DNA from: Methanobacteriota archaeon
GTDB taxonomy: Archaea; Thermoplasmatota; Thermoplasmata; SG8-5; JAGLSY01
Direction of reading: 5' to 3'
DNA length: 64,000 bases
Assembly (NCBI GenBank): GCA_020696385.1
Contig: JAEHCQ010000003.1
Span: 151,624-215,623, forward strand
Each line of letters opens with the position of its first letter. The stretch's first letter is position 1. Positions 9,432-49,938 of the stretch are shown one piece after another. The notes under the pieces are model-generated. The model was not told where the DNA came from and did not search any database. It saw only the letters and a program-made list of their open reading frames with translations. A program made the translations under genes and the position numbers.

Positions 9432-9455
9432 TTCCCATATCGGTCTTGTGCGTCC
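9407..9455 (-). repeat. Displaced copy of the pckG 3' end (matches 9643-9691)
   Basis: 46/49 identical; the three differences (TTC/TTT, AAA/AAG, CAG/CAA) are all synonymous; encodes DAQDRYGNYVSPFKF*. Confidence 0.92.
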
Positions 9456-9642
9456 GTAAGCCTTTTCTTTTACCCTCGCTCCTCTGGCTCACCCTCCAAA
9501 AGAACAAGTATTCCAATATCGACCAAACAAGTTTGGAAAATAGATGCGCGAAAACACGCATCTAAAAAAGAAAACTCGGGTGAGCCTGCTCGCTCGGGGC
9601 TATTACTAAAGATTATATGCTGAAACTCTCACCTAGTATCAA
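9456..9642 (-). mobile_element. Structured non-coding tail-associated element, copy E1 (core 9473-9599)
   Basis: On the gene strand: CCCCGAGCGAGCAGGCTCACCC...GGGTGAGCCAGAGGAGCGAGGG with internal AGATGCG/CGCATCT and CCAAAC/GTTTGG hairpins; homologous to the 23.8 and 48.2 kb copies. Mobility is inferred. Confidence 0.65.
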
Positions 9643-22701: not shown

Positions 22702-22868
22702 TTTTTTAAATGCGACTGGACCCATTATTCCCACGCATTTATTTTATCAAACCTTTACAAACAGCATAGGGGTTTGATTCATTTGATTGCGACTGGACCC
22801 ATTATTCCCACGCATTTATTTTATCAAACGTGTATTTGATAGATGCAGGTAATTAGTTTGATTCGATA
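22702..22868 (+). repeat. Element-family hairpin modules (E4) with a 42-bp direct repeat (22711-22752 = 22788-22829)
   Basis: TTTTTTAAATGCGACT-N15-ACGCATTTATTTTATCAAACC...GGTTTGATTC matches the reverse complement of 48185-48251 except in the loops. Confidence 0.8.
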
Positions 22869-23801: not shown

Positions 23802-23909
23802 TAATACGTCCCCACTTTTTTCTTTAACCTCGCTGTGCTGGATCACCCTCCAAAGAAAAAAGACGGACAAAATAAGAAACTCGGGTGATCCTGCTCACTC
23901 GGGGTTTGC
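23802..23909 (-). mobile_element. Structured non-coding tail-associated element, copy E2 (minimal form)
   Basis: On the gene strand: CCCCGAGTGAGCAGGATCACCCGAGTTTC...TTTGTCCGTCTTTTTTCTTTGGAGGGTGATCCAGCACAGCGAGGTTAAAGAAAAAAGTGG; lacks the internal hairpins. Mobility is inferred. Confidence 0.65.
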
Positions 23910-47015: not shown

Positions 47016-47960
47016 ATGGACCTCGCAGAAAGAGTTCTGTCCGGTGATAAGAGGGGCGTTGCAAGACTTATAAGCCTCATCGAGTCAGAGGATGATGAGG
47101 CGTATGTTCAACTTGGAAAGTTACATTCTCACACAGGCAATGCTCATATAATCGGTATTACCGGGCCACCCGGTTCGGGAAAGAGCACCATTGTGGATAA
47201 ATTGGCCAAGGCCTACAGAGAGATAGGCAAGACAGTGGGAATTGTCGCTGTAGATCCAACAAGCCCTTTCACAGGAGGAGCGATCCTGGGAGATCGGATC
47301 AGGATGACCGACCTCACATTGGATCCTGGGGTATTCATAAGAAGCATGGGAACACGTGGACATCTTGGTGGGCTTTCAAGAGCCGCATCCGGGGCTGTCA
47401 GGGTGCTAGATGCCTTCGGAATGGATATCATCATTCTGGAAACAGTGGGAGCTGGTCAATCCGAAGTTGAAATTGTTAGTCATGCTCACACAACTATCAT
47501 AGTCGAAATGCCAGGTCTGGGGGATGAGATACAGACCATCAAGGCAGGCATCATGGAGATCGGAGATATCTTTATCATAAACAAGGCCGACAGGGAAGGA
47601 GCGGACAAAACATCGATGGAGATACAGGCGATGTTGGGTCTGAACCCGAACAAACCTGAATGGGTGCCGCCTATAATTCAAACGATCGCCAGAAAAGGAA
47701 AAGGCGTGGATGCGGTTGTCGAAAAAATAGAAGACCACTATAAATATCTGAAGGATAGTGGGATGTTCGAGAAGATGATCGAGCAGGGAATAAGAGAGGA
47801 ACTTGATATTCAGATAAAAAGTCAGCTCGGAAGAATTATAAAAAATAATATCGATGATAAAACTCTGGAAAAACTTGTAAAAGATATCATCGACAAAAAT
47901 ATCGACCCTTACTCTGCCGCGAAATTTGTACTAAAGGACATTGAAGATATATTGAATTAA
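47016..47960 (+). CDS. meaB: Mutase-associated GTPase MeaB
   Basis: GITGPPGSGKST, AVDPTSPFTGGAILGDRIRM, ETVGAGQSE and NKAD motifs. Confidence 0.95.
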   Translation: MDLAERVLSGDKRGVARLISLIESEDDEAYVQLGKLHSHTGNAHIIGITGPPGSGKSTIVDKLAKAYREIGKTVGIVAVDPTSPFTGGAILGDRIRMTDLTLDPGVFIRSMGTRGHLGGLSRAASGAVRVLDAFGMDIIILETVGAGQSEVEIVSHAHTTIIVEMPGLGDEIQTIKAGIMEIGDIFIINKADREGADKTSMEIQAMLGLNPNKPEWVPPIIQTIARKGKGVDAVVEKIEDHYKYLKDSGMFEKMIEQGIREELDIQIKSQLGRIIKNNIDDKTLEKLVKDIIDKNIDPYSAAKFVLKDIEDILN

Positions 47961-48011: not shown

Positions 48012-48054
48012 AATTATTTCTTATATTTTCACAGATCTTTATGAAGTTCTTGAA
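48012..48054 (-). repeat. Older, decayed displaced guaAA 3' tail
   Basis: Reads FKNFIKICE, then (after a 1-nt deletion in an A run) KYKK*, using alternative codons. Confidence 0.75.
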
Positions 48055-48064
48055 GGTTCATGTC

Positions 48065-48120
48065 AATTATTTCTTGTACTTAGCGCAGATCTTAATGAAG
48101 TTTTTAAAAATGTCTTCACC
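48065..48120 (-). repeat. Displaced guaAA 3' tail (matches 48330-48385)
   Basis: 50/56 identical; all six differences are synonymous third positions; encodes GEDIFKNFIKICAKYKK*. Confidence 0.95.
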
Positions 48121-48329
48121 ACCACTTTTTTCTTTAAACCTCGCTGTGCTGTATCGGGCTCCAAAGAAAAAAGACGGACAAATCGAATCAAGCCAGTCGG
48201 CTTGATCAAAATAAATGCGTAGGCTCCATAGGTAAAGTCGCATTTAAAAAAGAAACTCGCCCAAGCTCGATTTATCGAGATTGTGAAAGCTCAGCTTTGC
48301 TGAGATTCAGCCTGCTCGCTCGGCATGTT
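48121..48329 (-). mobile_element. Structured non-coding tail-associated element, copy E3 (longest form)
   Basis: Shares CCACTTTTTTCTTTAA, CCTCGCTGTGCTG, CTCCAAAGAAAAAAGACGGACAAA, AAGAAACTCG and CCTGCTCGCTCGG blocks with E2/E1; internal hairpins at 48187-48206 and 48213-48245. Mobility is inferred. Confidence 0.7.
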
Positions 48330-48331
48330 AA

Positions 48332-48904
48332 TTATTTCTTGTACTTAGCACAGATCTTAATGAAATTTTTGAATATATCCTCACCGTACTCTGTATGTTC
48401 AACTTCGGGATGGAACTGCACACCGTAAAATGGTTTTTCTTTGTGCGCGAAGGCTTGGTGCGCACAATCTTTTGAATGCGCGAAGTTCTTGAATGTGTCC
48501 GGCATGATCTTGACCTCATCATTGTGAGATTCCCAAACCTGGAAAGGTGATATCACACCCTCGAACAATTCATTTTCCTCTTCGATGATGACGGATGTCT
48601 TACCGAACTCGGGAACAGTCGCGGGTCCTGCGGTTCCACCGTAATATAGTGCCATGAACTGCGCGCCGACACAGATCCCCATGATAGGAAACTCTGCTTT
48701 GTCAAGGTAGTCCCCACTATTTCCCAGCATCAATGCTTCTTCACCAATTCTTGGAGCACCGCCGGATAGAATTAGACCATCTACATCCAGGTCCTCAAAT
48801 GGTGTAGTATTCGGGATTATCTCTGTTTCCACATCGAGGTATTTCAAAACTCGCCATTCTCTATGTGTCCACTGTCCGCCATTGTCTACAACGAAGATCT
48901 TCAT
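48332..48904 (-). CDS. guaAA: GMP synthase subunit A (glutamine amidotransferase)
   Basis: VVDNGGQWTHR, LSGG, GICVGAQ, SHNDEV and QFHPEV motifs. Confidence 0.96.
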   Translation of the reverse strand: MKIFVVDNGGQWTHREWRVLKYLDVETEIIPNTTPFEDLDVDGLILSGGAPRIGEEALMLGNSGDYLDKAEFPIMGICVGAQFMALYYGGTAGPATVPEFGKTSVIIEEENELFEGVISPFQVWESHNDEVKIMPDTFKNFAHSKDCAHQAFAHKEKPFYGVQFHPEVEHTEYGEDIFKNFIKICAKYKK

Positions 48905-48984: not shown

Positions 48985-49938
48985 TCATTCCCATTCGATA
49001 GTTCCAGGTGGTTTGTTCGTGATATCATATACCACACGGTTGATCTTATCCGGCATGGTATTGGTTATCCTGATAGATATCTTCTCCAGAACTTCATGTG
49101 GAATCTTGGAATAAGCCGCGGTCATGCCATCAATGGATTGGACAGCCCTAACGCAAACAGTATATCCATAGGCCCGTACATCGCCCTGAACTCCAACTGT
49201 CTGAATCGGGGTCAATACTGCGAAGTACTGCCATGGAAGCTCCATCTTTCCCTCTTTCGCCGCAAGCTCCAGCTCTTCCTCAACAATGAAGCATGCTTCT
49301 CTGACGATCTCTGCTTTTTCCAATGTTGGTTCACCAATGATCCTGATAGCGAGACCAGGTCCTGGGAAGGGTTGCTTCTCAGATATTGAAATACCGAGAT
49401 ATCTTCCAACCTTTCTTACCTCATCCTTGTACAGATCCCTAAGAGGTTCGACAAGCTTCAGGTTCATGTCCTTAGGCAATGCGCCGACATTATGATGGGA
49501 TTTGATGACATCCCTGAGGTCACCACCGCTCTCGATCCAGTCCGGTGCTATTGTGCCCTGAACCAGATATTTCGCATCGATGTCCTTCGCATATCGGTCA
49601 AATATACGAATGAAAGTGTGGCCGATAGCCTTCCTTTTGGCCTCTGGCTCGACAGCTCCCTCCAATTCTTTGGAGAATTCCTCAGCGGCCTCGGCCACCT
49701 GGAGGTTGACTCCCATATCACGCAGAAGTTCAGCAACTTCTTTGGATTCGTTCTTCCTCATGTAACCAGTATCAACATGCACACCGTATAATCGGTCACC
49801 AATAGCACGCGCCACAAGTACCGCGGCCACAGTGCTGTCCACTCCTCCAGAGCAGGCGATTATGGCAGTGCCGTCTATATCGGTCTTCAATTTCTCTATT
49901 GATTCATTGACGAACTTCTCAGGATCGAACATATACAT
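48985..49938 (-). CDS. guaAB: GMP synthase subunit B (ATP pyrophosphatase)
   Basis: SGGVDS, QGTIAPDWIES, IKSHHNVG, PFPGPGL and KPPGTIEWE motifs. Confidence 0.96.
   Translation of the reverse strand: MYMFDPEKFVNESIEKLKTDIDGTAIIACSGGVDSTVAAVLVARAIGDRLYGVHVDTGYMRKNESKEVAELLRDMGVNLQVAEAAEEFSKELEGAVEPEAKRKAIGHTFIRIFDRYAKDIDAKYLVQGTIAPDWIESGGDLRDVIKSHHNVGALPKDMNLKLVEPLRDLYKDEVRKVGRYLGISISEKQPFPGPGLAIRIIGEPTLEKAEIVREACFIVEEELELAAKEGKMELPWQYFAVLTPIQTVGVQGDVRAYGYTVCVRAVQSIDGMTAAYSKIPHEVLEKISIRITNTMPDKINRVVYDITNKPPGTIEWE

Follow-up and report, generated by a model that had tools for sequence, protein, structure and literature searches.

The gene guaAA, in the window analysed here (a stretch of 64,000 nucleotides (nt) from a Methanobacteriota archaeon of the Thermoplasmata, contig JAEHCQ010000003.1, positions 151,624 to 215,623), is followed by two further copies of its own 3′ end, and a non-coding element of 203 nt separates the gene's own end from the nearer of these copies. 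This element belongs to an old family of structured repeats, small and non-coding, that occurs throughout one archaeal order of Thermoplasmata type. The explanation that best accounts for the observations as a whole, and which we consider probable, is a structured repeat family whose left flank is copied again without a dedicated transposase, whose arrays are homogenised afterwards, and whose sequence would fold into a pseudoknot with a triple helix.

The product of guaAA matches the NF001975 profile at 245 bits (cut-off 198). A repeat search places the end of the gene in a 62-nt direct repeat of 89% identity, the copies of which we call tail 1 and tail 2; a decayed third copy is tail 3 (Table 1). 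In blastn searches against the whole 2.28-Mb assembly, the alignment of tail 1 with tail 2 covers 62 nt at 88.7% (E 4.6e-16); tail 3 aligns with either of them at 84% over 43–44 nt (E 3.3e-5). The partial third copies at 48012-48028 and 48030-48054 are 84–88% identical to the corresponding parts of tails 1 and 2. These similarities are far beyond chance, and the three successive tails of the original prediction are real. Its description of them also holds at the level of codons: tails 1 and 2 differ at 6 of 18 codons, always synonymously (GAG/GAA, GAT/GAC, ATA/ATT, TTC/TTT, AAT/AAC, TGT/TGC), five of the six changes fall within the first seven codons of the repeat, the edge at which tail 2 touches the element, and tail 3 is more diverged, with GCT changed to GAA (alanine to glutamate), more substitutions and a 1-nt deletion. 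A seventh difference between tails 1 and 2 follows the stop codon (TTAACATG versus TTGACATG). Exact and degenerate patterns of the guaAA tail matched no stretch among metagenome contigs. Two other accounts of the tails were discarded. Translation of tail 2 through an open reading frame (ORF) at 48067-48243 would start inside a hairpin module that is missing in the sister species, G002, and mutagenesis of the kind exerted by diversity-generating retroelements does not fit differences that are not adenine-specific.

The core of the element is built in a fixed order. The constant left end CCGAGCGAGCAGG is followed by a variable helix of 7 bp (S1) and then by two U-rich strands that may enclose hairpin modules; a linker of consensus CCAGCRCAGCGAGG and an A-rich 3′ end complete it. 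No integrase-sized ORF and no ORF of a family of its own is found in the 203 nt between tails 1 and 2, and in the alignment of cores the two ends, CCGAGCGAGCAGG and AAAGAAAAAAGTGG, are not inverted copies of one another.

Table 1. The guaAA locus and the parts of its element, in window positions.
Feature	Position	Strand	Remarks
guaAB	48985-49938	-	upstream of guaAA
guaAA, GMP synthase subunit A (glutamine amidotransferase), 190 aa	48332-48904	-	ORF; NF001975
Tail 1, left copy of the 62-nt repeat	48324-48385	-	last 17 codons, stop and 8 nt; functional gene end
Element, 203 nt	48121-48323	-	core of ~95 nt with four nested hairpin modules, which are absent in the G002 orthologue
Constant left end CCGAGCGAGCAGG	48311-48323	-	near-invariant alignment columns; first six bases can pair with linker GCGAGG (P1, tandem G.A)
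Two small hairpin modules, CTCAGC..GCTGAG and CTCGAT..ATCGAG	48266-48310	-	no counterpart in G002; repeated in other element copies
Helix S1, 5′ strand CTTGGGC	48259-48265	-	covariation test
U-rich strand 1, GAGTTTCTTTTTT	48246-48258	-	proposed Hoogsteen strand; register covariation
Two larger hairpin modules, AAATGCG..CGCATTT and ATCAAGCC..GGCTTGAT	48187-48245	-	between the U-rich strands; absent in G002
U-rich strand 2, 5′ strand of helix H2, GTCCGTCTTTTTTCTTT	48163-48179	-	
Helix S1, 3′ strand GCCCGAT	48153-48159	-	covariation test
Constant linker ACAGCACAGCGAGG	48139-48152	-	family consensus CCAGCRCAGCGAGG
3′ A-rich tract and distal pairing, AAAGAAAAAAGTGG	48122-48135	-	3′ strand of H2
Tail 2, right copy of the 62-nt repeat	48059-48120	-	same peptide and stop; begins 1 nt past the element's 3′ end
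AACC spacer between tails 2 and 3	48055-48058	-	CC is probably the last trace of a second, deleted element
Tail 3, decayed third copy	48012-48054	-	first 6 codons missing; substitutions and 1-nt deletion
meaB, methylmalonyl-CoA mutase-associated GTPase	47016-47960	+	convergent, downstream; bounds the guaAA locus

How large is the family to which this element belongs? Searched with blastn against its own genome (G000), the element gave 49 matches at E up to 1, across 11 contigs, and the 14 loci that were read reveal a discrete unit with a constant left end, a constant internal motif and an A-rich right end. A hidden Markov model built from 46 cores aligned with MAFFT produced 48 hits in G000, which merge into 43 elements; the dispersed copies are 80–94% identical. 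When one mismatch is allowed, G000 has 25 occurrences of the 14-nt linker motif and 0 of the reversed-pattern control. The left-end motif on its own is too noisy at two mismatches (154 hits versus 112 in the reversed genome). Of 21 other genomes of the order that were searched, 20 contain the linker motif, and outside the order it drops to the level of the reversed control. Among 185,579 species genomes, one for each species, 41 of the 42 motif matches lie in metagenome-assembled genomes (MAGs) deposited as Thermoplasmata, Methanomassiliicoccales or Methanobacteriota archaeon, and the 42nd is not accompanied by the remainder of the element. The element pattern has no match in viral contigs, no Rfam family matches the guaAA locus or seven cores at E up to 1, and neither literature searches nor Rfam yielded an earlier description of this element.

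Further copies are present in the window itself. A second full element at 23808-23902 (minus strand; C33:175431-175525 in G000) lies behind an ORF of 394 aa between 50-nt flanking copies that are 100% identical, and its right copy continues into 13 nt of the left end of a further element. The third copy, at 9454-9597 (minus strand), measures 144 nt with its modules and has a 50-nt flanking duplication of 94% identity. A stretch at 22702-22827 (plus strand) is composed solely of internal hairpin modules. Other repeats keep company with the elements: a distinct GC-rich hairpin repeat (..GGCTGGGTGAGGATAA.GAC.CCGCCCCTGC..GGGGC.GGG..) lies near them at G000 C11:636545-636700 and at locus L091 of G002, another (GGGGCATGCTCGAA..GCATAT.ATT.CAATTC) makes up the left flank of three element copies, and at least three head-to-tail units of ~62 nt (GGACCATTCCATAATAAATTCGCAATGGTC...) adjoin an element at G000 C46:40470-40760.

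Is the repeated gene end peculiar to guaAA? We aligned the two 260-nt flanks of each element with one another, using 400 random placements as reference (95th percentile 25, 99th percentile 54). The flank-versus-flank score exceeds 25 in 34 of the 43 elements and lies above the 99th percentile in 25. Repeat lengths vary from 17 to 225 nt, with ~340 nt at C50, and in most copies the right repeat begins −7 to +6 nt from the last base of the element. The duplicated DNA is whatever precedes the element on the left: the 3′ ends of guaAA and ten or so other genes, the 5′ ends of genes on the other strand (C46:40838, C47:27148, C11:662707), and a tRNA end (C33:26018). The same duplication is found at 16 of 30 full-length elements in other MAGs of the order. 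Element-free sites, each with a single copy of the flanking DNA, are seen for guaAA in G001 and for C46:100242 and C22:311319 in G001, G002 and G003; at the position of the element's left end such sites have CCGA- or GAGC-like bases.

The junctions may carry traces of how the copies came about. In G000 the right copy runs on into the 9-mer of the element's left end in 5 of 24 cases, compared with none of 24 control windows, and the same is seen in G002, G012 and G014. Arrays of two or three units stand at C47:27148-27601, C33:72720-73072 and C11:530545-530801 as well as in other MAGs. Inspected by eye, about half of 17 junctions have 2–10 nt of similarity between the last bases of the element and the bases to the left of the left copy, for example GGCCTTC/GGCTTAC or AAGTG; no target motif is common to the left junctions of these 17.

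Three loci are unusual. At C11:78040-78100 only the linker and the A-tract remain (~31 nt), yet a 27-nt duplication of a gene end flanks the copy, which is either 5′-truncated or the product of recombination between two AGCGAG-containing motifs. At C50:1167-2060 an element lies between two diverged copies of ~340 nt, each with the end of a Y1 transposase gene, a spacer and a complete tRNA-Phe(GAA) gene (87–88 nt). Directly after the right copy of C22:311319 stands a gene of 370 aa with a response-regulator receiver domain at its start (C22:310010-311229); it is absent at the syntenic site in G001 and G002, which puts this element at the edge of a variable segment.

Why do the displaced gene ends still look like coding sequence? 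In 11 comparisons in which the left copy overlaps an ORF of at least 200 aa, 61 differing codons are synonymous and 9 are non-synonymous (C46:40838 was left out, its differing codons being upstream of the ATG); all 19 comparisons, doubtful short ORFs included, give 63 to 25. Stop codons are retained even where they are altered (TGA/TAA, TAG/TAA). Neutral drift of a right copy cannot yield such a ratio. At C33:175431-175525, a site occupied in both species, neither G000 (50/50) nor G002 (39/39) shows any difference between its left and right copies, whereas the copies of the two species differ from each other at seven or more sites, including AGC versus TCC for serine. Identity within a genome combined with divergence between species shows that the flanking copies evolve in concert. 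For guaAA, the proportion of synonymous differences between G000 and G002 (pS) is 0.575, yet of 54 sites only 5 differ in tail 2 and 4 in tail 1; tail 2 is therefore no decaying fossil. Judging from these comparisons, both copies are evidently overwritten with selected sequence through gene conversion and recombination with other lineages. Tail 2 still encodes the peptide, with silent differences only, because conversion, unequal exchange and recombination with functional alleles keep the copies around an intact element alike. The original prediction had interpreted the silent changes near the junction as possible recoding of a recognition site. We find that silent-only differences recur at numerous loci, on one edge of the repeat or the other, in copies that are alike within a genome and diverge between species; no recoded site is needed, since gene conversion and recombination with functional sequence suffice for the clustering.

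The history of the guaAA site itself can be followed in relatives. The comparison comprised 30 loci, 29 of them with downstream sequence (17 in the order, 12 outside). As the original prediction had proposed, aligning the 3′ ends of guaAA revealed an empty site, in G001, where a single tail and no element follow the gene, and it showed that the site is occupied recurrently: 5 of 17 genomes of the order, compared with 0 of 12 outside, carry an element there, and these elements belong to two subfamilies. The independently assembled G002 has tail 1, an element of 93 nt and tail 2. Between the elements of G000 and G002, 94 of 101 aligned positions agree, including all 62 of the right part; in a second orthologous pair 8 of 93 positions differ, including two compensatory S1 pairs, although such paired changes could also be obtained by conversion from other copies. 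G012, G014 and G020, from another family (~65% guaAA identity), have an element of the variant subfamily and a second tail behind guaAA, with a different downstream gene.

Did the tails arise by serial invasion, each arrival pushing the previous tail outward, as had been suggested? In G002, CCGAGCGAG, which is the left end of the element, directly follows tail 2 and is fused to the apparent end of tail 3; in G000 only CC stands at this place, but most of tail 3 is retained. The ancestral array was therefore tail 1, element, tail 2, element, tail 3. The second element would have been deleted separately in the lineages of G000 and G002, with tail 3 decaying. That inserted elements displaced the tails, and that a second one once lay between tails 2 and 3, is borne out; that this took serial invasions does not follow, because unequal crossing-over between repeats gives the same array.

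What structure do the cores share? Three pairings covary. For S1 (together with GCAGG/CCAGC), 89.8% of positions are paired, versus 71.6% in shuffles, and 104 cells are doubly changed, versus 38 ± 6, a number matched by 0 of 500 shuffles; sliding the partner by 1–3 columns lowers pairing to 18–41%. H2, in which U-rich strand 2 pairs with the 3′ A-rich tract, is the minimum-free-energy helix. Its distal part changes in step among subfamilies (GTCCGTC..GTGG, GGAAACC..GGCTTCC, CTGAATA..TACTCG, CCCC..TGGG). Run lengths differ between subfamilies, so that pairs could not be counted by column in the MAFFT alignment; H2 was tested instead by a scripted comparison of own with foreign strands, and in 43 of 47 cores the duplex energy is lower with the core's own strands than with those of other subfamilies. 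The third pairing concerns the register of the U-rich strands and the A-tract: three run lengths agree, those of T ahead of the single C in U-rich strand 1, of A ahead of the single G in the A-tract, and of T behind the last C in U-rich strand 2. The classes of run length (U-rich strand 1, U-rich strand 2, A-tract) are (4,4,4) in 15 cores, (3,3,3) in 10, (5,5,5) in 5 and (4,5,4) in 9, the last with one more T at the preceding GAN position; in nine cores the register disagrees or the C is missing. The uninterrupted run of parallel T.A and C.G matches averages 6.7 with a core's own A-tract versus 4.1 with tracts of other classes, and is longer with the own tract in 40 of 47 cores.

Together, the three covarying pairings suggest a pseudoknot with a major-groove triple helix of U.A-U and C.G-C triples around the 3′ A-rich tract. 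In this fold, which RNA or single-stranded DNA could adopt, the A-rich tract would form Watson-Crick pairs with U-rich strand 2 and Hoogsteen triples with U-rich strand 1. The given strand alone has two pyrimidine strands and one purine strand. The variant subfamily carries ATTTTC/GAAAAT at the positions of P1 in place of CCGAGC/GCGAGG. Not all helices coexist easily, because P1 leaves 2–5 nt ahead of the A-tract; P1, S1 and H2 may be alternative folds. Copying of S1 from the target was rejected, the 6-mer of a copy's own S1 being found in the flanks of 3 of 22 copies versus a shuffled mean of 4.5.

How, then, does the element come to lie between two copies of its left flank? We favour template switching provoked by the structure as the route of insertion and duplication, because no reverse transcriptase and no target motif were found, the stagger varies from 17 to 340 nt, the junctions show microhomology, right copies run on into a further left end, and arrays occur. 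A replicating strand that has copied the compact structure would slip back to short homology upstream and copy the gene end a second time; the arrays would then expand, contract and become homogeneous by unequal exchange between repeats.

Several observations weigh against the reading set out here. Dispersed copies in G000 are at most 94% identical to one another, hence there is no fresh insertion to inspect, and template switching alone does not explain the sharp, constant left end. All compared genomes are metagenome bins. Flanking copies that are not identical have their differences concentrated at one edge of the repeat, and the two versions match the alleles of different relatives, a pattern that fits import of a foreign allele as well as conversion in place. 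The decay of tail 3 is odd, since ordinary gene conversion should still reach it. As for the fold, G.T outnumbers A.C in S1 by only 13 to 7, which would weakly favour the given strand as the one that folds, and with so little sequence between P1 and the A-tract, P1, S1 and H2 could hardly form simultaneously. Finally, 9 of the 43 elements are antisense to both neighbours, and the orientation bias is mild.

Could the two copies instead be a donor and a resident allele? The element might move between lineages at the same locus together with a piece of the donor's gene end, one end entering by homology and the other being joined illegitimately upstream. At C22:311319, 64 identical nt precede the last 15 nt of the left copy, which match G001 and G003 (1–2 differences), while the right copy matches the sister G002 (2 differences); allele sharing is mosaic at C46:100242, several pairs have conserved coding and diverged non-coding parts, and there is microhomology at the right junction as well. 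Such a transfer requires an occupied donor allele, however, and leaves the first arrival at a locus unexplained; no donor genome with a matching allele was found, and identity of the copies within each genome at a locus occupied in both species speaks for homogenisation in place. We regard transfer with a donor tail as unlikely.

Slightly less credit still is due to an enzyme that inserts the element at staggered nicks, the filling-in of which would duplicate the flank. A conserved, single-copy Y1 transposase related to IS200/RAYT, or an unrecognised nuclease, could be imagined in this role. The ends of the element are sharp and constant, G000 and 15 of the 21 other genomes of the order have a Y1_Tnp gene, mostly in single copy and conserved in sequence, and that of G000 has an element ~270 nt downstream. 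On the other hand, Y1 ORFs were detected at 12 of the Y1 loci scanned in the 15 other genomes and no element motif was found near them (~0.5–2.5 kb of flank each, strict motif), Y1 genes occur outside the order too, the left junctions share no motif, and a stagger of 17–340 nt is unlike any enzyme of fixed geometry. Y1 transposases, moreover, are known to insert beside a fixed short target and to do so without target duplication. The gene in G000 (C50:1965-2396, minus strand; motifs DHVHLF and CYHGSVGQGF) has orthologues in G001, G002, G006-G009, G012, G014 and others. It looks vertically inherited rather than borne by an insertion sequence, and could be the partner of this repeat family or of another one.

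We consider it improbable that the family is a non-autonomous retroelement resembling short interspersed nuclear elements, in which target-primed reverse transcription would generate target duplications of variable length. The A-rich 3′ end, the variable duplications and at least one 5′-truncated copy that is still duplicated (C11:78069) would suit such an origin, and triple helices with an A-tract are known from RNAs of transposable elements (PMC13541005). In contrast, the reverse transcriptase profile PF00078 (RVT_1) has 0 matches in G000, which is 94.5% complete, while control genomes do match; the microhomology lies to the left of the left copy, where priming by an RNA 3′ end would not place it; and the copies are old, at 80–94% identity.

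The parallel with bacterial islands at guaA, which the original prediction had drawn, fares worse. Integrase-carrying islands would have entered the 3′ end of guaAA repeatedly with replacement tails and later been deleted, leaving scars. Direct repeats of a gene end around foreign DNA do have the layout of attL and attR, and the site is occupied in 5 of 17 genomes of the order. But the insert is a mere 203 nt with no integrase and no ORF of its own family, no larger insert follows guaAA in the 29 genomes examined, the same element is found at about 40 other loci, each of the 43 family copies having its own local duplication and so no common att site, and repeat length varies from 17 to 340 nt. 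We think this origin very improbable; the end of guaAA is either a preferred site or a very old one, not an island site. Least credible of all is an assembly artefact, in which strain variants of a gene end were stitched together through the repeated element: all genomes are metagenome bins and the two copies do resemble two alleles, but the same geometry recurs in independent MAGs from different depositors and at orthologous loci of two species with species-specific repeat sequences, the right copy mostly starts at the last base of the element, and many copies are identical, unlike what strain variants would give.

What might the element do? Behind a co-oriented gene lie 27 of the 43 elements, of which about 16 start 25 nt or less from the stop codon. 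For this majority of copies it is plausible that the fold caps a 3′ end and shields the transcript of the co-oriented gene. If the fold does protect transcript ends, it would represent a new mechanism of messenger RNA stabilisation in archaea, and if the structure itself causes the duplication, the family would be an example of DNA that spreads without an enzyme. More far-reaching, and in our view rather doubtful, is the idea of an archaeal counterpart of ENE and A-tract structures that caps RNA 3′ ends, spreads without a transposase by template switching that its fold induces, has its spare gene ends renewed from the working copy, and can be removed by recombination without a scar, so that its presence is reversible. 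Apart from such proposals, comparison of the cores lends support to a U.A-U triple helix that, in an archaeon, surrounds an encoded A-tract, and the flanking duplications, long and of variable length, leave the interrupted gene intact. The data also hold a warning for annotation, and for inference from ratios of non-synonymous to synonymous substitution (dN/dS) in metagenome bins: duplicates that evolve in concert give a non-functional gene end the appearance of purifying selection.

How does the element compare with known systems? Integrative islands at the 3′ ends of tRNA, tmRNA and guaA genes likewise duplicate the gene end, leave the gene intact and place the displaced copy beyond the insert. 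Unlike these islands, the element has neither recombinase nor cargo, each copy has a local repeat of its own, and the repeats abut a unit of 95–200 nt. Mobile endonuclease ORFs at the ends of mitochondrial genes, such as atp6 of Allomyces, bring along a replacement C-terminus. In both cases a functional replacement tail comes first and the original tail, displaced, stands behind it, the differences between the two being mostly silent, but a homing endonuclease is encoded there and nothing is encoded here, and the copies that flank the element are homogenised within a genome. With miniature inverted-repeat transposable elements the family shares small size, lack of coding capacity, multiple copies, presence or absence among relatives, and flanking direct repeats. 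It differs from them in having no terminal inverted repeats, in a duplication of 17–340 nt as opposed to a fixed 2–10 nt, in that no transposase-bearing parent related to it was seen, and in the age of its copies and their conservation at orthologous sites.

Families of small structured repeats are familiar from bacteria but poorly charted in archaea. REP/BIME with RAYT, BOX, ERIC and RUP are small structured intergenic repeats of bacteria, and like them the element has tens of dispersed non-coding copies, mostly just past gene ends, and hairpins with compensatory changes. Like BOX it is modular, with a variable number of internal hairpins, and as with REP and RAYT, a conserved single-copy Y1 transposase is present in its genomes; RAYT genes are flanked by their repeats, and here an element stands beside the Y1 gene in G000, while the strict motif search saw none near the Y1 ORFs checked in other genomes. 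The element is set apart from all these bacterial repeats by its archaeal hosts, by a predicted pseudoknot and triple helix in place of a simple palindrome, and by the direct duplication of the left flank, long and variable in length, at 34 of 43 copies.

The closest structural likeness is to ENE and A-tract structures, which are also found in PAN and in MALAT1/MEN-beta. The ENE families differ from the element in that it has no Rfam sequence homology, is archaeal and occurs in many copies, and in that its A-tract, placed within a DNA element that looks mobile, runs on into another short helix. The ENE-like layout, two U-rich strands around a stem with an A-rich tract downstream, is what the A-tract and register comparisons recovered. 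Runs of U.A-U triples with one C.G-C interruption are common to both, and in the element the position of this interruption covaries in all three strands. In the ENE and A-tract triple helices of plant and fungal transposon RNAs (PMC13541005) the layout matches that of the element, the parts succeeding one another alike: stem, U-rich strand, upper hairpin or hairpins, U-rich strand, stem and A-rich tract.

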